NCBI GenBank assembly: GCA_024137785.1
Contig: JAHRHZ010000133.1
Coordinates: 67,132,245-67,196,244 of the forward strand
Length of the DNA: 64,000 nt
Origin: Ginglymostoma cirratum
Lineage: Eukaryota
Reading direction: 5' to 3'
This document shows positions 3,614-56,839 of this stretch, piece after piece. The position numbers were made by a program, and so were the translations under genes. A model generated the notes under the pieces. The model saw only the letters and a list, made by a program, of their open reading frames with translations. It was not told the DNA's origin and did not search any database. Position 1 is the first letter of the stretch; each line of letters begins with the position of its first letter.

Positions 3614-4779
3614 AATGCAGATGAGGAAAAGACCGGTCATGACAGAAGTAAGTGGCGGAAGAGAATCATGGAGCAAAATTCTGTTCTAATAATCTGGTAC
3701 CTCTTGAGATAGGAGAACAAGTTATCTCCAGGTTAAAACATAAAACAATCTGTGGGAATACAGTAATCTGAAACAAGAGGGGTGTTTCATTCCAGCTACA
3801 CATCCTTCAAGCTACTTCAGTACAATCTTGAGGGGAGGTTTAAGAGAGAAAGAGACAGAAATGTGTTTCTTCACTACAGATTTTCTTCTTGCGTAGAAGT
3901 ACCTAAACACTCGTGATCATTTCAAGAGAAATCTATCAAATGTCTTCATTTGTAAGGCTCAATAAACCAAATGTCTCATCCTTATTGGTACTGCTGTTCT
4001 CTCTATTGCTAGGCCACTCATTTTTCATTGAAAAACTAAAACATGCAATTTCAGTTAAAATAATAATTTCCCCCCAACCCTTCAGTCTTGTTCCCTTCCA
4101 TTCTGATCAACAAATTTATACGCAGACAAGTGAATCATGATTTATTGAAATATTAAATAAACTACACAAGCTGATACTTAAGCAAGGAAGTTGAAATAAA
4201 AATCTGAGTGGAGCAAATCAAAATCTAGAAATTCAACATTTCTTTTGTCAGATTAAATATCCATAATGGACTTTCTGTACTGGGCCTTAGCAAATATGAG
4301 GACGCAGTGAAGGTCTGACATACTTAACCTCGTGTCTCACTTCTCCATCATTCAAGTTAACTCAATGCAGCAAGACAGTTCACATATGCATCCATTATTC
4401 CCTTAAATTATTTACATGGTGGTTTTGATTAACTGGGCAAGGTCTCTGCTCTGTTGTCAAAATCTCTGCTTTAAAGGAAGCTGAACAGGCTCTGATCTAA
4501 TAACATTCCACAGCACTAGGCCTGTTTAATGCACACACAGTCACACGCACACACCCAAAAGCACATACTCAGTTCAACTGAACCATACAACTCTTAGCTT
4601 TCAGTCTGAATCTGTACTTTATCAGAAATGAGTTTTTAAGCACACAAACTTTAAACGCACAGTTACGTGACAACGCACTTTATAGCATTTAAGACAGCCA
4701 TAACACCAGGAGTGGTAATTTGTGAGACTACCATAGCTTGAAGCACAATATTGAAGGGTGACACTCCAGCGCAGTTCTG

Positions 4780-5538
4780 AGGTAAACAAACTGGAGGCTA
4801 GAAGAACACAGCAGGCCAGGCAGCATCTGGAGGAAAGGAGCAGTCAACATTTCGGGTATTATCCTTCTTCAGCCCTGCCGGTTTATTGTAAATGGCATAA
4901 ATGTCGATTCATAAACTGTCACCAGAAATGAAAACAGAGGTCAAGAAAGGGGAGGGAAATGTCTGAGACAGACCAAGTCAATTTGAGGGGGAGGTGGAAG
5001 TTGATAGCCCTCAGTTCTTTTCCTCTCCAACAGCCCCATCCATTCCCCACCACCTCAACGAACCAGTCCTCGCCCTCAATAATTCTCCCCACTTTCTCCA
5101 AATCCAGGGGGTTGCCATGGGCACTCGCACGGGCCCCAGCTACGCCTGCCCAATTGTCTGTAATGTCGAACAGTCCCTCTTCAGTATGTACGCCGGTACT
5201 GTTCCTCAACTCTCCCGCCTTTACATCAATGTCTGCATCGGTGCTGCATCCTGCACCCAGGCTGAACTGGAGCAATTCATCGACTTCACTCACGACCACC
5301 TCACCCTCAAATTCACTTCGTCTATCTCAGACACTTCCCTCCTCTTTCTTGACCTCTGTTTATATTTCTGGCAACAGTTTACACACCAACATTTACTATA
5401 AACCAGCAGTCCTGAAGAAAGGTAATACCCGAAACGTTGACTGCTCCTTTCTTCCAGATGCTGCCTGGCCTGCTGCGCACTTCCAGCCTCTTGTCTGTCT
5501 ACCTTGGATTCCAGCATCTACAGTTTTTTTTTGTCTCT
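4780..5538 (+). mobile_element. Internally deleted Penelope-like retroelement (RT fragment plus hammerhead-bearing terminal repeat) with an inverted ~225 bp duplicate arm
   Basis: ORF 4994-5401 encodes PLE-type RT motifs (FLQIQGVAMGTRTGPSYA; RLYINVCIG as decayed RYIDD; LKFTSSISDTSLLFLDL; then TNIYYKP in another frame). 4780-5005 is a diverged reverse complement of ~5287-5504. Confidence 0.85.
5405..5445 (+). ncRNA. Minimal type I hammerhead ribozyme motif
   Basis: AGCAGTC CTGAAGA A AGGT-AAT-ACCC GAAAC GTT GACTGCT. Perfect 7-bp helix I, core boxes CUGANGA and GAAA, palindromic ACGT helix III. Predicted cleavage after ~5438. The first pair of stem II is mismatched in this copy. Confidence 0.75.
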
Positions 5539-5559
5539 AACCCAGTTGAGGTAACACTT

Positions 5560-5690
5560 CTGAGGAAGGGTCACCGGACCCGAATCGTTAACTGTTTTCT
5601 CCTCCACAGATGCTGCCAGGCCTGCTGAGCTTTTCCAGCAACTTTGTTTTTGTTCCTGATTTACAGCATCCGCAGTTCTTTTGGTTTTTA
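5560..5690 (+). mobile_element. Short PLE-derived hammerhead element, family 2, single arm
   Basis: CTGAGGA A GGGTC-ACCG-GACCC GAATC GTT AACTG. Perfect 13-bp TSD TGAGGTAACACTT at 5547-5559 and 5691-5703. Confidence 0.85.
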
Positions 5691-5719
5691 TGAGGTAACA
5701 CTTGTTTTGGATGGGGTGT

Positions 5720-6012
5720 GAAAACCTAGGGCCTGTTTACTGTCTTGAATGGATGTTAACATCACACGGCACTATTGTGAAAAAGATCACAGGAATACTG
5801 AATATTCACAAACATTGGCCTCCCACTCAACACCACTGAACAGCTGATTATCATCATACTGTTGCTTGTGGGAACTCTCCTTACTTAAACTGGGTGCTAC
5901 TTTTCTTATCTTACAGGAGGTATAATTCAAAAATCATACTTGCCTGGCTGTAAAATGCTTCAGAATATACTGAAATTGAGATAAGGGCTAGATAAATGCA
6001 AGTCTTTCTTTT
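5720..6012 (+). mobile_element. Deu-type SINE 3' part
   Basis: 'ggatgttaacatcacacggcactattg...ggctgtaaaatgcttc...gctagataaatgcaagtctttctttt'. Confidence 0.6.
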
Positions 6013-8934: not shown

Positions 8935-10330
8935 AATCAAAGGTTTTACAGTGCAGGTGGTCATTCAACCTACCGTGTCTGTGCCAGCTCTCCAAATGAG
9001 CACCGCGTACTATCCTCCTGACTTTTCCCTGTAACCCTGTATGCTCCTACCTTCCAAATAGCCATCTAGCCACTTGAATACCTTGATTAAGCCTATGTCC
9101 ACCACAATCTTGGGCAATGCATTCCACTTCAATGTAACTGATCCACTCATTACGCAAACAGATTTATTCTCATATCACTTTTGTTTGTTGGCCAGTATAG
9201 ACATGGTGGGCCAAACGTTGACATTCGCCACATTGCCTTCACATTCTTCCTAAGATGTATTACACTTTAGCTGAAGTCTCCTGTATTAATTTGACATAAC
9301 CTAATTGCTCTTTTATTCTATGCCCCTATTAATAAAGTATGCTTTAATAATTGCACTTTCAAACTTCAATGTCTTATGTACATATATAGACTGGTCCCTC
9401 TATGTACTTTTCAATATTTTTTGTCACTCCATTTTCTTCCTACCAAAATCACAACTCTCCATATTGAGCTTCATCTGTTCCTACCAGCCCATTCCACCAA
9501 CTTGCCTATGGCCTTCAGAAGTACTACAGTAACCTCCTCAGTCTACAATGCGTCCAAATTTCTCATCATCTACAAATTTTGAAATTGTGCCCCGTTTACC
9601 AAAGTCTAAACTATTAATATTTATCAGGAAAAAAAAAAAAGTCCCATGTGAGTGCAGGAGAACGCCAATACAAACACTGCTCCAGGCAAACAAAAATCCA
9701 TTAGCTGAGATAACAAGGTATAGAGCTGGATGAACACAGCAGGCCAAGCAGCATCAGAGGAGCAGGAAAGCTGACGATTCAAGCCTAGACCCTTCTTCAG
9801 AAAGAAATTTCTGAAGAAGGGTCTAGGCCCGAAACTTCAGCTTTCCTGCTCCTCTCGCGCTGCTTGGCCAGCTGTGTTCATCCAGCTCTACACCTTGTTA
9901 TCTCAGATTTTCCAACATCTGCAGTTCCTACTATCTCCAAAAGTCCATTAGCTGTTACTTTCTGTTTCCTGTCACTCAACCAATGCTGTTTCCATGTTTC
10001 CTCTGTTCTTTAACACAAGAGTTAAAACTTTTCTTACAAATCTGTTGTGTATCACTGCATTAAAAAACTTCAGGAAGGCCACGTACAGCACAGATCAACA
10101 CTCTTTGTTAACTCTTCAAAAGCTTTCAGCAAGTTAGTTGAACATAATTTTCTGTTAAGATATCTATGTCGGATTTCCTTAATTAACCCACATTTATCCA
10201 CATGACTATTAATTTTATCCCAAATTGTTTGCAGAAGAGTTTCAACCTTCAAAGTTCAGCTGACTGATTAATAGTGGCATGGCTTATCCTTACACTTTGG
10301 TCTTCAATTACCTTCCTCAGTATCCTTGGA
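8935..10330 (-). mobile_element. Fragmented CR1 LINE (3' UTR plus RT pieces), interrupted by a palindromic element
   Basis: Minus-strand ISKFVDDEKFGRIVD (ORF 9538-9747) and CSTNLLKAFEELTKSVD (ORF 10070-10252). CR1-type 3' end near 8935-9180. Confidence 0.7.
9705..9937. mobile_element. Palindromic PLE-derived hammerhead element, family 1
   Basis: Inverted arms 9705-9803 and 9808-9906, with a ~31-nt tail on the right arm only. Core CTGAAGA-A-GGGTCTAGGCCC-GAAAC at 9811-9835. TSD CAAAA(A/G)TCCATTAGCTG at 9691-9707 and 9938-9954. Confidence 0.9.
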
Positions 10331-12829: not shown

Positions 12830-14045
12830 GAGGCCGTAAGAATTTAAGACAGTAGGAACAGAAATAGGCCATTTGGCCCATCCAGACTGCTCTGCCATGC
12901 AATAAGTTCATAGCCAATCTGATAATGATAATGCTCAACTTTATTTTCCTGCCTAATCCCCATAACCCTCTATCTCAACCGTCAATATACTTAACAATTC
13001 AGTCTTGACAGCTCTCTCTGTTAAAGAAGTCCAGATTGACTATGCTCTGAGAGAAGGAACTTCTCTTCATCTGTCTTAAAAGGGGTGACTCCTTGTTCTG
13101 AGATTATGCGCTCTACTCTGTTCTCCCAGAAGATGAAAAAAATGCTTCTCAGCTTCCCACCTGCAACCCCGCCTAAGAATCGTATAAGTTTCACTTCTCA
13201 TTCTTTTAAACTCCAGTAAATACAAACCCAAACAACTGAACCTGCCCTCAGAAGAAAATCCCTCCATACCCAGAATCAACCTAGCGAACCTTTTCTGGAC
13301 AGCCTCCAATGTCAGTATCTTTCCTAAGATAACAGGACCTAAACCATTCACAGTATTCCAGGTGTGGTCTGACTTTTACCTTGTATAGTTTTAACAAGAT
13401 CTGCCTATTTTTACACACCACTCTCTTTGAAATACAATCCAACATTCCATTTGACTTCCCAATCACTCAAATGATCTTGGATACAAGCTTTTTCTATTCC
13501 ATGTATGAGGACTCCAAATCCCTCTGTGTTGCAGCTTTCTGTGTTATTTCCCCATTTAAATAATACTCAGCTCTTCTGTTCGTCCTGACTAAGTGGATAA
13601 CTTCACATTTTCCCCACATTATATCTCATCTGCCAAATCTTTGCTCACTCACTCAAACTGTCCATATCCCTCTGTAGACTCTTTTCCTTCTTCATTAGTT
13701 GCCTTGTCATCCGCAAACTTGGTCATTGAACGTTCACTTCTATCATCCAAGTCATTGATATATATTGCAAATAATACTGGGCCCGTACTGTTCCCTCCAC
13801 TAGTTGTAGGTGGTCATCCTAAAATTGCTCCCTTTCTCTTTAATCTCTGACTTGTATTAGATAGCCAATCATTTATCCATGTCTACATACTATCCCCAAC
13901 ACCATAGGTTCTTATCCGATTAAGTATCCTTAAATGCGGTACCGTATCAAAACACCTTTTGATAATCCAAATATATTCTATCTACTCGTTCACCTTTGTC
14001 TAGCCTGCTTTTTAGCTCCTCAAAGAGTTCTAATAAATTTGTATG
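12830..14045 (-). mobile_element. CR1 LINE, 3' ~1.2 kb, decayed
   Basis: VRPHLEYC (ORF 13281-13466) and LEAVQKRFARLILGMEGFSSEGRFSCLGLYLLE (ORF 13076-13351), followed by a CR1 3' UTR. Confidence 0.9.
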
Positions 14046-14424
14046 GCAGTTTCTTAATCAGCAAGCTTTCTCTGGGTGTCACCTTCTCCATTCTCCCTAA
14101 ATGCAGGGAAGGGGTGGGTATCCAAGACAACATTAGCACCATTATTATTACTCCAATTATGTCAGCAAGGGTTTAAAAACCCACAATATTTCTAATAATA
14201 TATTACTGCTGTAATTCCACATTAGCAATCATTGCCCCAGATGTTGCTAGTTCACCACATGAGCACAGCTAGTGCTCCCAAATAGCTTCAAAACAAAATC
14301 AATACCAAAAGCGATACAAGAGAAAAAGCAATGCCTATGATGCAATTCGGCAACCCAGAGTCAGCACCACAGCAGATACAAAGGAAAGCCTGAGGTAATT
14401 ACTCTAAATATTAATAAAAGCAAA

Positions 14425-24029: not shown

Positions 24030-24950
24030 CCTTTGTTTGACTTTGATTTTATTGTCACATGTACCGAAATACAGTGAAAAGCTCTGTTTACAAGTGGTGC
24101 AGGCAGATCACAGCAAGCAATGGATGTACAGATCAAAAAGACTTAAAGGCATCCAGGTTACATTGCAGGTTACATTATTTGAGGCTAAAGTCCATTCAAC
24201 AGTCTGATAACGGTGGGAAAGAAACTATTCCTGAACCTGCTCGTGCGTGTGTTCAGGTTTCTATATCTTCTGCCTGATGGAAGAGGTTATGGGAGGTCAC
24301 TACCAGGATGCGATGGGTCTTTGATGATGTTGGCGGCCTTTCCACAGCAGCAAGCCATGTAAATTGAGTCCATGGATTGAAGGTTGGCTTCCGTGATGGT
24401 CTGGGCTGTGCACACCACCTTCTGTAGTTTCTTACGGTCCGGGGTACAGCAATTGCCATACCTGGCTGTTATGCATCTGGACAGTATGCTTTCAATGATA
24501 CATCTGTAGAAGTTGAAGGTCATTACAGACATGCCAAATTTCCTGAGCCACCTGAGGAAGAAGACACGTTGTCGCGCCTTCTTAACTGTCGCACCTACGA
24601 GAGAAGTCCAGGACAGGTTGTCAGTTACCGTCATTCCAAGGAACTTGGTGCTCTTCACCCTCTCAACATCAGCTCCACTGATGTAGATGGGGGTGTGCTC
24701 TCCTGCTTTCTTTCTGAAGTCGATGATCAGTTCTTTAGTTTTGCTGATATTGAGACAGATTGTTTCACTGCAACACGTTACCAAGCCCTGTATCTTGACT
24801 CGTTATTATTAGTTATCCATCCCACTACAGTGGTGGCGTCAGCGAACTTGTCAGTGGCATTTGTTCAGAATTTGGCAACAGTTGCAGGTGTACAGAAAGT
24901 ACAGTAGGGGACTGAGGACATATCCTTGAGGGGGCTCCAATGCTGAGTGG
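24030..24950 (-). mobile_element. Rex1/Babar-clade LINE, 5'-truncated RT C-terminus and 3' UTR
   Basis: ORF 24287-24784 reads LNISKTKELIIDFRK...KFLG...NLSW...KKARQRVFFLRWLRKFG...FYRCIIESILSRCITARYGN...KAANIIKDPSHPG. Upstream are decayed APQGYVLSPLLY and KFADATTVVG motifs. Confidence 0.92.
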
Positions 24951-25072
24951 AGCCAGAAAATGGTACAGCCCTGGCTGCTGATTTCTGTTAAGTTGTGAGA
25001 AGTTCCCTACATCCAGACACAACTTGGCAGATGACACAAGTGTAAGATCGCAAAGACCAGCAGAAGCTGACT

Positions 25073-25201
25073 AGAGATAAGGAACTGCAGATGCTGGACC
25101 ATTTCTGATGAAGGGTCTAGGCCCGAAACATCAAGCTTTCCTGCTCCTGTGATGCTGTTTGGCCGCCTGTGTTTGTCCAGCTCTGCACCTTGTTATCTCA
25201 G
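25073..25201. mobile_element. PLE-derived hammerhead element, family 1, inverted tail plus one arm
   Basis: Inverted tail 25073-25098, then arm from TTTCTGATGAAGGGTCTAGGCCCGAAAC to TTATCTCAG. Perfect 11-bp TSD CAGAAGCTGAC at 25061-25071 and 25199-25209. Confidence 0.9.
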
Positions 25202-25544
25202 AAGCTGACCAACTCGTTTTGGATCTGGCTCACTGATTAGGAGCTCACCTGATCTCAGGGGCTTAGTGCCACTTAGCACTCTTGACTATGTCCAACACCG
25301 CCTTCCTCCACCCTTGCCACACTCCCAACTTGAGTATGCATCCACACACAGCCAATGCATTAGTTTCAGAATAAATGGAGGAAAGAAATATGGTAAAGTA
25401 AGAAGTGTTTTAAAATAGAAATTTCAGGTGAAACTGAAACTTCTTGAAGGGTAAAGGAGGGTAGGACAAAATTTGTGGACAGCACATACAGTTCCAGATG
25501 GGCTCTTCTGCCTATTTGTGGTGGAAATGTACACGTCTTGTGGG

Positions 25545-25815: not shown

Positions 25816-27864
25816 TAATGTAATTCTCTGTCAATTCAGCATTAGAAATGTTAAAAATGTTGTAAAGTTTTACAAGCAAGGCACTGCCTGTTTAATTTGA
25901 ACTGCTAAATCATGGACTGATACCAGGAATAAGGAATGACTGTACATTTCCCAATCACAGTGGAAACGTGCCAACTACATAGTGTGCATCATTTCTGAAG
26001 CTGTGCCTGGTTACAATAAATATCATTTTCAAAGATCCCGTTAGCAAACATAGTTCTGTCAGAAATGCTACCCCTACAGCAACTGACACCACAAGCGGTG
26101 GCCATTCACAGCTGCATTCATATTAACTCTGCCGGCACACCTCTACACTAGATAAAACTTTCACTTGTGAAAGAAGCTTGTACATAAAATGGAGGTTTTT
26201 ATAAAAATATTCTTTACCTTACTGACCGGCAACAGATTTCTTTGCGGGAATGCCATTACCAATTTAAAATGCTTGTCACTTAGAATCAGTCGGTTTCTAC
26301 CCGTCAAAGACAATCTGTGTCACAAAACTCCCAGTTATCAGCCAAGTGCATCCACTAGTTGCACAACACAACTTCATTCAGCAGCATCCGATGAACCAAG
26401 CATCCTTCACAAACAGTACCTTTATTCCCACATATCGGAGTGGGCTGGTTGGGCTACTGGATGTTGGGCCTAACTAGACCATGTAGGCATGAAGATCAGA
26501 GATTAGAATCTGCAAGTGCCTGAACACAGCACACAGTTAAGCAGATGATCAGTGTTACTGATTAATTAACAGGCTGGGTCAATATGAATGGGGAACAGGT
26601 GGAACTGGTGTGCCGCAGGAACTGAGATACTGAGTATTCAATAAACTTCATCCATAGAGACATGTTTTGTCTCACTGACTGGCTTGGATCTGAATTGTCA
26701 CTGTCGTGTCCTACTCACTATCCAAGCAAATCTACACTGCACACAGGAAACCTAGCACTGGAGCTCGTGTTCCAAGTCACTACCGAATCACACCTACCAG
26801 ACTCCACTCCTCACAGTTTAGGGTTTTCAAATCTAGTTGGACATGTTCTTCAGCATTTCATCATATGACCTCCCTTTAGGTCCACCCCCTCTGCCCACCC
26901 CACTGCTGATCCAACACGTCTATCTGAAGCGCTGCTTTCCAGTATCAACTGCAAAACAATCAAACTCTTCAATACTCAGATGTATGCTGATTCCCCATCT
27001 CCAATTTTTTTTTTTATAACCTACAAACAGATAGACTTATCTTTTTAAAGTCCTAAAGCGGTTCTCCTGGATTGCTGGCCACAATCTCCTGGAAATTAAC
27101 CCAGCATTTCCGGAGACTCCAGAGCAACCTTAATCAATGTCCGAGCCTCCACCGAGAATCAATAGATTCAGGATTGGGCGAACGTCCTGCCAACACTCAC
27201 AATTTGAGCTTAAACATTCAAAGAAAATTACAAGTGAAGGAAACCAAATGTGTTACATAAATAGAACTTTCCCTGAGTAACCACAGAATGCAAAACAATC
27301 TCTGAACAAACGCACTGAATATTTTTGGTATTCTGTATCTCCCAGAGGGATATCCTCTAACCCAATCACAATTACATCCCAAGTTTTGTTTTCCCTGCAT
27401 TCTAACCTCCTGGACAGTTGAAATGATTTGGGCAGATTGCTGGCAACAGCCGGAATGTGAATGCTCATAAGCCCATGAGACGCCTTCACAGAAACTCACC
27501 ACTCTCGTTGCTATCTCGTAATGACTAGCTCTGTTTTGATGTTATATATTACTGGGACATCATGAGATGTAACAAAAACAGGCAACTTTTTTTTCCCTCT
27601 TTCCTTTATCTCAGAAAATTAAAGTAAAATCGTTAAGTGCGGAAAGAAAATCAGAAGGAAAGTGTTTGGGTAACAATGGGCTTCAATCATAGGGTGTCTC
27701 ACGTTTATGTGCAGTACATAAAGTGACTGAACATAACAGTTACTGCAAGCCAACAACAAATAAAGGCCTTGCTCCAAGACAGAAACTTGACTTAGATGCC
27801 TTTCCTAAGGTGGGAGATACGCACAAAACCGCTGTCCTGTGAAAACAGGGACAGCCTTCATCAT

Positions 27865-28066
27865 AGATAAAAGGTACTGCAGATGCTGGAGAATCCGAGA
27901 TAACAAGCATGGGGCTGGATGAACACAGCAGGTCAAGCAGCATCATAGGAGCAGGAAAGCTTGACGTTTCGGACCTAAACCCTTCATCAGAAAATTTTCT
28001 GATGAAGGGTTTAGGCCCGAAACGTCAAGCCAGCCCCATGTTCATCCAGCCCCATGCTTGTTATCT
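27865..28066. mobile_element. Palindromic PLE-derived hammerhead element, family 1, young copy
   Basis: Apex CAGAAAA|TTTTCTG has no spacer. Intact cores on both strands (+ 27999-28026; - 27963-27990). Tail on the left arm; internal deletion in the right arm. Perfect 13-bp TSD CAGCCTTCATCAT at 27852-27864 and 28067-28079. Confidence 0.92.
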
Positions 28067-28124
28067 CAGCCTTCATCATGCTTTGCTACATTATAAACCC
28101 AAATCAGCAACAATGGAGTGCTTT

Positions 28125-31479: not shown

Positions 31480-33220
31480 TAAAGTACCATGTAACGGGCT
31501 GGTCAGCCAGGCTAAAGTAAATTTGAAACAAAAGGAAGAGTTGTTGCACAGAACCAAAGTTGTCTAAGTGACAGGAAACGGAGATAGTGTTGGACAGTTG
31601 TTTTCCGGACTAGAGGAAGGTATACAATGGGATTTCCGAGTTGTACCCTGAGCACTGCTCTTCGCGATATGTATCATACTAGACTTGGATGTATTGGGCA
31701 AAATTTCAAAATTTGCAGATGACAAAACAGAAGTATTGTGAACTGTAAGGAGGATAATGACAGACTTCAAGAGGACAAGAAGTTGATTAGAATGGGCAGA
31801 GAGGAAGCCGATGCAAGTTAATGCAGAGGAGAGTGAAGTGAAACAATTTGATAGGACCAACAAGGTGATGGAATATAAAACAAAGGGTACAATTCTAAAA
31901 TAGCTGCAGGAATAGAGAGATCTGAGAACATAGCAGCATAAACTATTGAAGATGGCCAGGCAGGTTGAGAAAATGTTTCAAAGCACATGGAATCCTGGGC
32001 TTTATAAACAAAGGAATAAAGCACAAAAATAAGGAAGTTTTCATAAATCTGTAGAAAACATTGGTTTGGCCTCGATGAGAGTATTGTGTTCAATGCTGGG
32101 CACCACATTTTAGGAAGGATGTGAAGGCCTTACAGAAGGACCAAGATCATTTAAACTTGGGCAGGGAAGGCCATTCAGCCCCTGATGTCTGTTCTGCCAT
32201 TAAGACATGGCTCATCTGAAACTGTGCAGGACCATGGGAAAGTAATAGGTAGCAGTGTGGACTAATTTGATAGCTCTCTCTCAAAGAGAAGACAGAGGCA
32301 CTAAAGGCCAAACGGCCTCTTTTTGTGCTATAATATTCCATGATTTCTATGATTCTACGATTGCAACCACAACTCCCATTTCCTGCCTGCCCCAATAATC
32401 CTCAAATCCACCAATCGAAAATGAGTGTAACTCAACCCTGAACATGCTCAACAACCCAGTCTCCATTCCTGTCTGGGGAAGAGAATTCCAAAAATTAGTG
32501 ATGCTCAGAAGAAATTCCTTGCAGTGTCCATCTTAAATTGAAGACCCTTTATTTTGCCCATGGTTCTTTATGGCCCTGAGAGGAAAAATCCTCTCAGCAT
32601 CTAGCCAATCATGTTCATGAAGAATAATCGTTTCAATAAGATTACCTCATTCTTCTAAGCACAGTTCAACCTGCTCAACATTTCCTACATGACAACCCTA
32701 TCATCCCAAGCATCAGACTAGTAAACTTATTTTGAGCTGTTGCCAACTCAAGTACATGGTGCAAGAAGTATTTAGAAGAACAGGTCAGAGAAACCAGTGT
32801 TATTCTCCTTGGAAAAGGGAAAGGAACGAAAGGATATGAAGAGGGACTCAAAATCACAGAAACAAGCTAAATCAAGTAGATGAAGTCCAAATGTGCCTAC
32901 TGACAGTACCATGAGGATACTGGCTTGGATTGGGAAAGGAATGAACAGTCAAATGAAAAAGAAATTTTCTTCAACATAATGGGTGGTTACACAGAGACAT
33001 GCATTGCTTGAGAGATTTGTGGAAGCAAATACAATTATGGCCTTCAAAAAGGAATTAGATAGGCATCTGAAGAAAAAGAAATGCAGGGCGGCAGGAAAAA
33101 GGGCAAGAGAAAGTGGGGCGAGCTGAGCTAAGCTAAGCTACTCTGCTCTTTCAGAGAGCCAGTACGAATATAACTGGCAGAATGACCCCTTTCTAGGTTG
33201 TTATAATAGGATTCTGTAAT
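31480..33220 (+). mobile_element. Decayed CR1 LINE (RT to 3' end) with nested CR1 insertions at ~32146-32740
   Basis: 'atttcaaaatttgcagatgac' encodes ISKFADD and 'gagtattgtgttcaatgctgggcaccacattttaggaaggatgtg' encodes EYCVQCWAPHFRKDV. The element resumes after 32740 and ends in a CR1 tail. Confidence 0.8.
32146..32740 (-). mobile_element. CR1 3' fragment (minus), itself interrupted by a plus-strand CR1 tail at ~32220-32357
   Basis: Similar to the 12830-13300 element. The internal piece ends in 'atgatttctatgattcta'. Confidence 0.65.
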
Positions 33221-35494: not shown

Positions 35495-36016
35495 CTGTGT
35501 GCAATTCTAATATCCCTGCTATAGGAGGGATGTCGTGAAACATGAAAGGGTTCAGAAAAGATTTACAAGGATGTTGCCAGTGTTGGAAGGTTTGAGCTGT
35601 AGGGAGAGGCTGAACAGACCAGGGCCATTTTCCCTGGAGCATCAAGGGCTGAGGGGTGACCTTATAGAGGTTTATAAAACGATGAGGAGCATGGATAGGG
35701 TGAATAGACAAGGTCTTTTCTTGGGAGTCCAAAACTAGAGGGCACAAGTTTAAGGCAAGAGGGGTAAGATTTAAAAGGGACCTAAGGGGCAACTTTTTCA
35801 CACAGAGGGATAGTGCATGTATGGGATGAGCTGCCGGAGGAGGTAGTGGAGACTGGTACAATTACAAGATCTAAAAGGCATTCGAATGGGTCTATGGATA
35901 GGATGTGTTCAGAGGGACATGGACCAAACGGAAATAAATTAATTTTGGATATCTGGACAGCATGGACAAGTTGGACCAAAGGGTCTGTTTCTGTGCTGTA
36001 TATCTCTATGACTCTA
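35495..36016 (+). mobile_element. CR1/HER1-type LINE, 5'-truncated, relatively young
   Basis: ERVQKRFTRMLPVLEGLSCRERLNR...LRGDLIEVYKTMRSMDRVN (ORF 35535-35738) and WDELPEEVVETGT. Tail 'ctctatgactcta'. Confidence 0.92.
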
Positions 36017-39934: not shown

Positions 39935-40524
39935 GAGATAAAAGGTACTGCAGATGCTGGAGAATCCGAGATAACAAGCATGGGGCTGGATGAACACAGC
40001 AGGTCAAGCAGCATCATAGGAGCAGGNNNNNNNNNNNNNNNNNNNNNNNNNNNNNNNNNNNNNNNNNNNNNNNNNNNNNNNNNNNNNNNNNNNNNNNNNN
40101 NNNNNNNNNNNNNNNNNNNNNNNNNNNNNNNNNNNNNNNNNNNNNNNNNNNNNNNNNNNNNNNNNNNNNNNNNNNNNNNNNNNNNNNNNNNNNNNNNNNN
40201 NNNNNNNNNNNNNNNNNNNNNNNNNNNNNNNNNNNNNNNNNNNNNNNNNNNNNNNNNNNNNNNNNNNNNNNNNNNNNNNNNNNNNNNNNNNNNNNNNNNN
40301 NNNNNNNNNNNNNNNNNNNNNNNNNNNNNNNNNNNNNNNNNNNNNNNNNNNNNNNNNNNNNNNNNNNNNNNNNNNNNNNNNNNNNNNNNNNNNNNNNNNN
40401 NNNNNNNNNNNNNNNNNNNNNNNNNNCAGGAAAACTTGACGTTTTGGGCCTAGACCCTTCAAGTTTTCCTGCTCCTATGATGCTGCTTGACCTGCTGTGT
40501 TCATCCAGCCCCATGCTTGTTATC
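39935..40524. mobile_element. Palindromic PLE-derived element, family 1, spanning an assembly gap
   Basis: The left arm is nearly identical to 27865-27955. Perfect 14-bp TSD ATCAAAATAACTTA at 39921-39934 and 40522-40535. The apex is deleted. Confidence 0.88.
40027..40426. other. Assembly gap (400 N)
   Basis: Run of N. Confidence 0.99.
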
Positions 40525-45069: not shown

Positions 45070-45560
45070 CAAGAACATAGAACAGTACAGCACAGTACAG
45101 ATCAGGCCCTTCGGCCCACGATGTTGTGCTGACCTATTATCCTACGTTAAGATCAAACTACCCTACAATTTACTATCATCCATGTGCCTATCCAAGAGTC
45201 ACTTAAGTGTCCCTAATGTATCTGACTCTACTACCACCACCAATGACAGCACATTCCATGCACTCACCACTCTGTGTGAAAAACCTACCTCTGACATCTT
45301 CCTTATACCTTCCTCCAATCACCTTAAAATTATGCCCCCTCATGATAGCCATTTCCGCCCTGGGAAGAAGTCTCTGACAATCCACTCGATCTATGCCTCT
45401 CATCATCTTGTACACCTCTACCAAGTCACCTCTCATCCTTCTTCGCTCCAAATGAAAAAAGCCCTAGCTCCCTCAATCTTCCTCAAAGACCTGCCCTCCA
45501 GACCAGACAGCATTCTAGTAAATCTCCTCTGCACCCTCTCTAAAGCTTCCACATCCTTCC
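45070..45560 (-). mobile_element. CR1/HER1-type LINE 3' end
   Basis: ORF 45203-45451 MERRRMRGDLVEVYKMMRGIDRVD...RGHNFKVIGGRYKEDVRGRFFTQ. Terminus 'agaacatagaacagtacagcacag'. Confidence 0.92.
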
Positions 45561-54169: not shown

Positions 54170-54358
54170 CACAGTGTGGAGCTGGAGGAACACAGCAGGC
54201 AAGGCAGCATCAGAGGAGCAGGAAAGTTGACGTTTCGGATCGGGACCCTTCTTCAGAAATGTGCTGTCCCGCTCCTCTGATGCTGCTTGGCCTGCTGTGT
54301 TCCTCCAGTTCCACAGTGTGTTGTCTCTGACTCCAGCATCTGCAGTTCTTGCTATCTC
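54170..54358. mobile_element. Palindromic PLE-derived hammerhead element, family 1 variant
   Basis: Minus-strand core CTGAAGA-A-GGGTC-CC-GATCC-GAAAC-GTC at 54229-54256. The right arm lacks the core and carries the tail. TSD CTAA(T/C)TCAAGA(A/T)TCAT at 54154-54169 and 54359-54374. Confidence 0.88.
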
Positions 54359-54624
54359 CTAACTCAAGATTCATACTGTTAGTCCTCTCCTACTTCATGC
54401 ACTTTGAAGCAGGGTCTAGCAGTTACTAGTTCAGCAGCCTTTGGAATCGGCATGGCAAGAGAACCACATTTGTTTGCAAAAGAACCAAACCTGCAGAATA
54501 AGCAAAGATTCCTCACACATGCCCAAGGCAAGCACATCATATTTGGATTATTTCATCAGGACACCACAAAGAAAGGTGGAGGAAGAACACAGCCTATCGC
54601 GTAGACATCATGCCACTTTTCATT

Positions 54625-55905: not shown

Positions 55906-56489
55906 TGTGGGGCTGGATGAACACAGCAGGCCAAGNNNNNNNNNNNNNNNNNNNNNNNNNNNNNNNNNNNNNNNNNNNNNNNNNNNNNNNNNNNNNNNNN
56001 NNNNNNNNNNNNNNNNNNNNNNNNNNNNNNNNNNNNNNNNNNNNNNNNNNNNNNNNNNNNNNNNNNNNNNNNNNNNNNNNNNNNNNNNNNNNNNNNNNNN
56101 NNNNNNNNNNNNNNNNNNNNNNNNNNNNNNNNNNNNNNNNNNNNNNNNNNNNNNNNNNNNNNNNNNNNNNNNNNNNNNNNNNNNNNNNNNNNNNNNNNNN
56201 NNNNNNNNNNNNNNNNNNNNNNNNNNNNNNNNNNNNNNNNNNNNNNNNNNNNNNNNNNNNNNNNNNNNNNNNNNNNNNNNNNNNNNNNNNNNNNNNNNNN
56301 NNNNNNNNNNNNNNNNNNNNNNNNNNNNNNNNNNNCAAGCAGCATCATAGGAGCAGGAAAACTTGACGTTTCGGGCCTACCGAAACGTCAAGTTTTCCTG
56401 CTCCTATGATGCTGCTTGGCCTGCTGTGTTCATCCAGCCCCACACCTTGTTATCTCGGATTCTCCAGCATCTGCAGTACCTTTTATCTC
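55906..56489. mobile_element. Palindromic PLE-derived element, family 1, spanning an assembly gap
   Basis: Inverted arms with a deleted apex (tcgggccta|ccgaaacgtc) and a tail on the right. TSD TGAGTAA(T/C)AGAATGTG at 55894-55909 and 56490-56505. Confidence 0.88.
55936..56335. other. Assembly gap (400 N)
   Basis: Run of N. Confidence 0.99.
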
Positions 56490-56839
56490 TGAGTAACAGA
56501 ATGTGCTGTATTTGACTTAGCTACCATATTTTGTACAGTCCAATAGTAGTGATACTTCAAAAGTACCTTAATGTCTGTAAAGAGCTGTAGGAAGGCCTGA
56601 GATTTTGACCAGTGCCAAAAATGTAATCTATTTTCTTCAACAGTGGTGAGCAATCAAAATCACTAAATTTTAAGAGGTTAAACTTTGGATTTGAGATGAA
56701 TTTTTGAAAAGGTTAGAAGTGGGAATAAAAGTAATTACCAGAAGCACTCTGTGGTAGCAATAGCAAAAACCATGGCACTAGGATGGGTTAATCTCTATTT
56801 ATTTCCAAACCATGACTGTACCAAAGCAGAGTGACAGAT

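Follow-up and report, generated by a model that had tools for sequence, protein, structure and literature searches.

The hammerhead motif at 5405-5445 (+ strand) of a 64,000-nucleotide stretch of the Ginglymostoma cirratum genome (contig JAHRHZ010000133.1; the window hereafter) is very probably the minimal type I hammerhead of the pseudo-LTR (pLTR) of an endonuclease-bearing Penelope-like retrotransposon (PLE), carried in a dead elasmobranch copy that was formed by one insertion, has decayed neutrally and likely no longer cleaves itself. Cervera and de la Pena described this class of pLTR hammerheads in 2014. Our literature search found no paper characterising shark PLE hammerheads, and sharks are not named in the examined portions of the text and supplement of PMC4209133. 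One chondrichthyan genome is counted among the bearers of hammerhead retrozymes in the available part of a recent preprint (bioRxiv 10.64898/2026.07.22.740005).

Anatomy of the motif and its damaged stem II

Read from the sequence, the + strand at 5405-5445 holds a hammerhead motif whose helix I consists of seven Watson-Crick pairs between AGCAGTC (5405-5411) and GACTGCT (5439-5445). Between these strands lie the core C3-A9 (5412-5418, CTGAAGA in DNA and CUGAAGA in RNA), an extra A (5419), stem-loop II (5420-5430, AGGT-AAT-ACCC, with three pairs and a three-base loop) and the segment 5431-5438, in which GAAAC (5431-5435) and GTT (5436-5438) supply G12-A14, an ACGU palindrome (5434-5437) in the place of helix III, and U17. 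A preliminary description of this DNA had read the same succession of helix I strands, core, stem II, GAAAC and GTT. It had also called the motif a complete minimal hammerhead with a perfect 7-bp helix I; the seven pairs stand, whereas "complete" was too strong for a motif with three pairs in stem II and an A at 5420 facing C5430. All core nucleotides (C3-A9 and G12-U16.1) are intact, the arrangement CUGANGA...GAAA with a NUH cleavage triplet is present, and the cut is predicted to fall between 5438 and 5439. The triplet is GUU, which is cleaved more slowly than GUC.

The exact core pattern occurs five times in the window, where 0.06 occurrences would be expected, and only once, at 5405-5445, when a helix I of at least 4 bp or of at least 7 bp is added; none of 300 Markov shuffles yielded such a match. 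A chance match was rejected on the result of 0/300 for a helix I of at least 4 bp. A random match, or a ribozyme taken over by the host, is hardly credible as an explanation of the motif: no hammerhead family appears among the Rfam covariance model matches up to E 10, as this reading would have it, but the shuffles, the location inside a high-copy PLE pLTR and the lack of any excess of conservation all speak against it, and we infer that Rfam misses the motif because it has no helix III. By eye, no host gene stood out among 130 ORFs of at least 55 aa in 1-22000.

In the available parts of PMC4209133, the PLE class is defined by four features: helix III is absent, 15.2-16.2 forms a palindrome, one additional nucleotide sits between positions 9 and 10.1, and the pair G10.1-C11.1 is conserved. 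It occurs in the fish elements Xena, Poseidon and Neptune, with thousands of copies per vertebrate genome that are mostly solo, some forming opposite-strand pairs 100-700 bp apart. The motif at 5405-5445 resembles this class in the palindrome that replaces helix III, the extra nucleotide, the pLTR location and its occurrence in a truncated copy, and the earlier assignment of a helix III made of ACGU alone to a known dimeric class agrees with the same source. The extra A is typical of PLE hammerheads (PMC4209133) and is also known after CUGANGA in natural hammerheads (PMC3705267), so that its tolerance, as first proposed, is borne out by both; in the window, A5419 is invariant in 13 of 13 aligned copies. 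Unlike the class as presented in PMC4209133, the motif has a broken G10.1-C11.1 pair, a short stem II (4 bp in its ancestral form) and a helix I of 7 bp. Of the listed features of PLE minimal hammerheads, G10.1-C11.1 is the only one absent from 5405-5445.

Position 10.1 (5420) is an A opposite C5430 (11.1), so that the conserved G10.1-C11.1 pair is now an A.C mismatch. All 12 other aligned window copies, including an inverted twin of the motif, have G at 10.1. What remains of stem II at 5420-5430 is worth -0.6 kcal/mol, compared with -3.7 to -7.0 kcal/mol in six of nine other folded copies; stem II is likewise damaged in the remaining three. According to the available parts of PMC3088659, G10.1-C11.1 is the most conserved hammerhead pair after A15.1-U16.1, with a U-U mismatch tolerated best, and natural hammerheads with a stem II of 1-2 bp are active. 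If the register slipped so that G5421 paired with C5430 and G5422 with C5429, at the cost of two extra A, a G-C pair would be left beside the core. The stem II variants of the motif and its twin had been correctly given as AGGT and GGAT, and the ancestral stem reconstructed from them, GGGT-AAT-ACCC, implies that the A at 5420 is damage, a consequence overlooked at the time. The ancestral stem II of this element thus had 4 bp. Because its G10.1-C11.1 pair is broken, 5405-5445 is a mutated descendant of the PLE minimal hammerhead class, not an intact member. Across 13 window copies, which are related to one another and mostly lack the 5' strand of helix I, stem II was 96% paired and helix I 64% paired, with values as high in 6 of 500 shuffles for pairing and 27 of 500 for covariation; we do not take these counts as proof of structure.

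A PLE insertion with an internal deletion and an inverted arm

Directly upstream of the motif lies a decayed PLE reverse transcriptase (RT) fragment (5003-5404, +; 5' limit approximate) that extends from the core motifs to the thumb motif YYKP with one frameshift at about 5355-5360. At an E-value cutoff of 0.001, searches with this fragment returned 612 homologues, with a best identity of 62% among the best 150 of the 612, in agreement with the RT sequence first noted at this position. Twelve homologues were scanned in Pfam; about eight contained RVT_1 and GIY-YIG, two GIY-YIG only and two neither. Five were looked up and proved to be four whale shark gene models and one stingray protein. All 11 long homologues checked carry a CX2-5CxxC linker, which, in the available part of PMC8557442, marks the Neptune and Nematis clades when found between RT and endonuclease. 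By this linker, rather than by a tree with named references, the homologues appear to be of Neptune/Nematis type. Both the linker region and the GIY-YIG endonuclease, present in the long homologues, are deleted at the locus, where the RT fragment was kept. Pfam gave solely a spurious poxvirus match (E 0.039) for two translations from the window, and pattern scans for relatives of the family found none in viral contigs and none in two metagenome scans.

The deletion junction lies at 5404-5405 (+, with the breakpoint placed to within a few bases), and about 290 codons (the rest of the thumb, the linker and GIY-YIG) are missing together with the 3' UTR; in three homologues, 291 (P0054), 288 (P0067) and 294 (P0028) residues follow the YYKP motif. 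The adjacency of RT and hammerhead is therefore a result of internal deletion and reflects no functional arrangement. Splicing as the cause of the junction was dropped on the inference that the KPTD-type codons of homologues provide no GT donor; the motif continues with (T/I/M/A)(D/N) in 31 of 33 homologues.

Alternatively, the junction could belong to a compact non-autonomous element, a deletion family that was amplified with the whole hammerhead retained, rather than to a one-off event; we regard this alternative as unlikely. Both arms of the insertion share the junction, and it coincides with the 5' boundary of helix I, as such a family would predict. On the other hand, the junction occurs in no other copy in the window, contigs of the family cease to match at 5403-5404 (among the 15 of 303 joints listed), word-based and hence weak protein searches with the junction-spanning frame returned nothing, and the left arm could have been copied during the same insertion.

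The junction also bears on the origin of helix I. The 7-bp helix might in part be an accident of the deletion or the fold-back, the parent helix having been shorter; we consider this possible, if doubtful. The 5' strand starts at the junction and pairing stops exactly there, and minimal hammerheads of Schistosoma have a helix I of only 4-5 bp (PMC4209133, in its available parts). Against an accident, seven chance pairs have a probability of about 6e-5, the loose ends of the family inserted at 5558 end in CAG in three runs, and the whale shark gene model P0024, which runs backwards through a related pLTR, has the four residues SSGL in common with this locus across the core and its neighbouring strand, a degenerate kind of evidence. 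From P0024 and the CAG ends, about five pairs of helix I look native; on this comparison of sequences the helix is probably ancestral in part, over roughly the five core-proximal pairs.

The whole insertion spans about 4776-5538 and consists of an inverted left arm and a right arm with a tail. The left arm (4776-5005, -) abuts the RT fragment head to head and represents the 3' part of a 5'-truncated element, with the RT end, the same RT-hammerhead junction and the pLTR, and has no tail. Aligned with 5288-5508 it shows 38 mismatches over 221 bases, placing the arms 17% apart. It contains a second, dead hammerhead copy at 4839-4879 (-), earlier placed at 4841-4880 and rightly described as the more decayed of the two; it differs from 5405-5445 at 6 of 41 positions: C15.2 has become U, both pairs that close helix I are mismatched and stem II is broken. 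A 9-base duplication at 4900-4912 (-), just ahead of the YKP codons of the left arm, is absent from the right arm. Downstream of the motif, the right arm continues with the rest of the pLTR (5446-5508, +), which includes a pyrimidine tract, CAG and, at 5458, an ATG whose reading frame stays open across the tail, and ends in the tail itself (5509-5538, +; 30-34 bases), which is found on this arm only. A possible left target-site duplication at 4768-4776 (+) matches 5539-5547 at 7 of 9 positions and is tentative. A tail confined to one arm was seen in all four inverted pairs inspected in the window.

An inverted arm with a one-sided tail is a described PLE pattern in the available parts of PMC8557442 and PMC3846280, which include a Pen2_Av copy on scaffold 304 with inverted pLTRs, a 10-bp duplication and an internal deletion. 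The insertion at 4776-5538 resembles the complex EN+ PLE insertions of these reports in its inverted 5'-truncated arm, one-sided tail (30-40 bp in theirs), short target duplication and internal deletion; unlike theirs, the inverted arm here reaches into RT and repeats the deletion junction. Two priming sites have been invoked for such insertions in PMC11167929, as far as available, where the Poseidon element PAc of Anolis likewise has a pLTR hammerhead near an ATG and two priming sites separated by the tail. PAc, however, is an intact Penelope/Poseidon element whose cutting was shown with the help of protein, whereas the present case is a decayed copy with homologues of Neptune/Nematis type, known from sequence only. 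In one insertion, the right arm with its tail would have been primed at the distal site and the inverted, tailless left arm at the proximal site. Both arms carry the jump that removed about 290 codons and brought the RT thumb against helix I, an event that may have come before the copy entered its presumed neutral decay.

Folding, decay and transcription of the genomic copy

A 51-mer around the motif, folded alone, adopts the hammerhead as drawn (-10.9 kcal/mol, z -2.1), and 7 of 200 shuffles were equally stable. For RNA ending at 5447, helix I has a predicted probability of 0.98; extension to 5455 lowers it to 0.68, and beyond that, from 5462 onwards, it is about 0. These values are equilibrium predictions, and during transcription the fold would be open for about 10 bases. 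Helix I is thus predicted to be lost once about 15 downstream bases are attached, because 5403-5422 pairs with 5446-5468, and in longer RNA the best hammerhead-compatible fold lies 3.0-7.5 kcal/mol above the predicted minimum. When the left arm is part of the transcript, it is predicted to pair with 10 of 11 sampled positions of the motif, at probabilities of 0.84-1.0. The pyrimidine-CAG tract also supplies the strand that competes with the ribozyme core.

No dimer partner in cis with an intact palindrome was found, the nearest candidate (5560) reading UCGU. A cis dimer with the 5560 motif was ruled out by this palindrome and by a predicted 5400-5610 fold that keeps the two motifs apart. In an active parent, two motifs would pair their ACGU palindromes to build one helix III between them, with cleavage after U17; judging from the literature, such cleavage would be weak and probably assisted by the protein of the element. 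Weak cleavage in dimeric form is probable for the reconstructed ancestor; this is the expectation for the published class and not a new property.

Loss of the 10.1-11.1 pair, the competing helix, pairing with the antisense arm and the lack of an intact partner nearby make it very likely that the genomic copy is inactive. The earlier proposal that this is the best candidate for real self-cleavage in the window holds in that no other window copy has a long helix I, but the A.C pair, folding in context, lack of conservation and lack of an intact cis partner leave real cleavage unsupported. A weakly active ribozyme is conceivable and quite improbable; it would act in a short or nascent transcript, with helix I formed and a stem II of 2-3 bp, and as a trans dimer with transcripts of the family. 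The intact core, the perfect helix I and the isolated fold are what such an activity would need, short stems II can work (PMC3088659, available parts) and RNA of the family is abundant in one sequencing run (X22). Besides the A.C pair at 10.1-11.1, the competing helix and the antisense arm, it is opposed by the behaviour of undamaged minimal PLE hammerheads, which, according to the available parts of PMC4209133, do not cleave as monomers and cleave only to a low extent as dimers; the anole PLE hammerhead cuts only with the protein of the element, and no reads ended at its cut, in those of PMC11167929. Little sign of transcription of the locus in two raw RNA runs, read in part, also argues against weak activity.

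The reading of an inactive copy in neutral decay can be compared with the rates of change along the insertion. Between the arms, the hammerhead differs at 6 of 41 positions and the other bases at 32 of 180 (p 0.82), with 1 of 13 core positions changed. In a DNA run from a second organism, 5 of 190 positions differ over 5245-5434, a piece extending only 30 bases beyond the junction. Two flanking pieces together differ at 31 of 755 positions (16 over 4400-4819 and 15 over 5666-6000), and the greater conservation of the piece with the hammerhead is not significant (p 0.40). The hammerhead thus appears to have decayed as fast as the rest of the insertion, in small tests with which mild constraint is compatible. 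Since pieces of both were found in the second organism, this insertion and a neighbouring one at 5558-5691 seem older than the split.

Reads were aligned at 80% likeness for 4 of 24 sequencing runs, with 24% of X22 and 57% of X23 read. In these portions of the raw RNA, no pile-up of molecule ends was seen in either run, fragmented libraries being of a kind that hides ends, and the flank bins were empty in 9 of 13 cases for X22 and 13 of 13 for X23. Family-like reads were numerous in both raw runs, with 24,157 at a likeness of at least 80% in X22. Run X1, taken as RNA by guess only, yielded contigs over the flanks, one with a single difference in 363 bases; transcription from this locus may therefore take place in some tissue.

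Related copies in the window and a possible role of the hammerhead

The window contains 11 relaxed hammerhead cores and 23 pLTR segments, the latter making up 3.5% of its length, with some segments being two parts of one insertion. The nearest, a short pLTR with tail of a related family (5558-5691, +), is flanked by a perfect 13-bp target duplication (5547-5559 and 5691-5703) and has its own hammerhead, 148 bases downstream of the 5405-5445 motif on the same strand, with its core at 5560-5589 and A15.1 changed to U. Reads of this family have loose ends at 5558 and 5691, and most have A at 5585, as against U15.1 in the 5560 motif. In DNA and RNA runs alike this family is represented in very large numbers, with head-to-head and tandem forms among them. 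A pyrimidine tract with CAG and ATG follows both hammerheads on their 3' side (5446-5460 and 5594-5610), with a frame of 27-28 codons through the tail, and by its sequence looks like a 3' splice site joined to the start of a PLE ORF.

Type I hammerheads in PLE-derived non-coding repeats are a feature that the locus shares with non-LTR retrozymes (PMC7229834 and bioRxiv 10.64898/2026.07.22.740005, in the parts available). Unlike these, it forms no head-to-tail array; its two same-strand hammerheads belong to separate insertions of different families.

Head-to-head fold-back pLTR insertions were also noted at 9691-9957, 27860-28075, the 42047 region, 54174-54363, 56336-56490 and 25072-25202, and the insertion at 9705-9943 has a 14-bp target duplication that is clearer than that of 4776-5538. 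The assembly gaps of the window (about 39990-40426 and 55935-56335; 800 N) lie in or beside fold-back pLTR insertions, and from these positions fold-back hairpins may be under-assembled. Fragments of LINE-like RT, found by tblastn through chimeric gene models, are present at 10094-10186, 13175-14051, 24578-24712, 32024-33099, 35571-35944 and 45362-45463; by their motifs we take them to be of CR1/L2 type.

The 5' ends of the pLTR segments fall 2-7 bases before C3 in 9 of 23 cases and further downstream in 10, the other four being the queries or the twin. About two copies begin at the predicted cut, and the 5404-5405 junction lies at -7. In the fold-backs 40427-40524 and 54260-54363, the start of one arm coincides with the predicted cut or lies no more than a few bases away, inside a 3-base microhomology in the first; such starts are compatible with a cleaved RNA template and do not prove one. 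Since the 5' strand of helix I, ahead of an uncut core, holds most 5' ends and the junction, with about two ends at the cut, the PLE hammerhead could act mainly as an RT stop or template-jump signal, kept uncut by the pyrimidine-CAG helix, rather than as a cutter, a role that we propose as a rather unlikely one.

By itself the locus matters little, as it is one damaged copy among presumably very many in the genome. It is useful as a worked example: the deletion spared the whole of helix I, missing from most short copies, and from the two arms the parent motif can be dated and reconstructed. If the hammerhead does serve as a stop or jump signal, shark PLE copies would be a fossil record of its role in vivo. 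An active parent form would extend the known class to elasmobranchs and would not open a new one.
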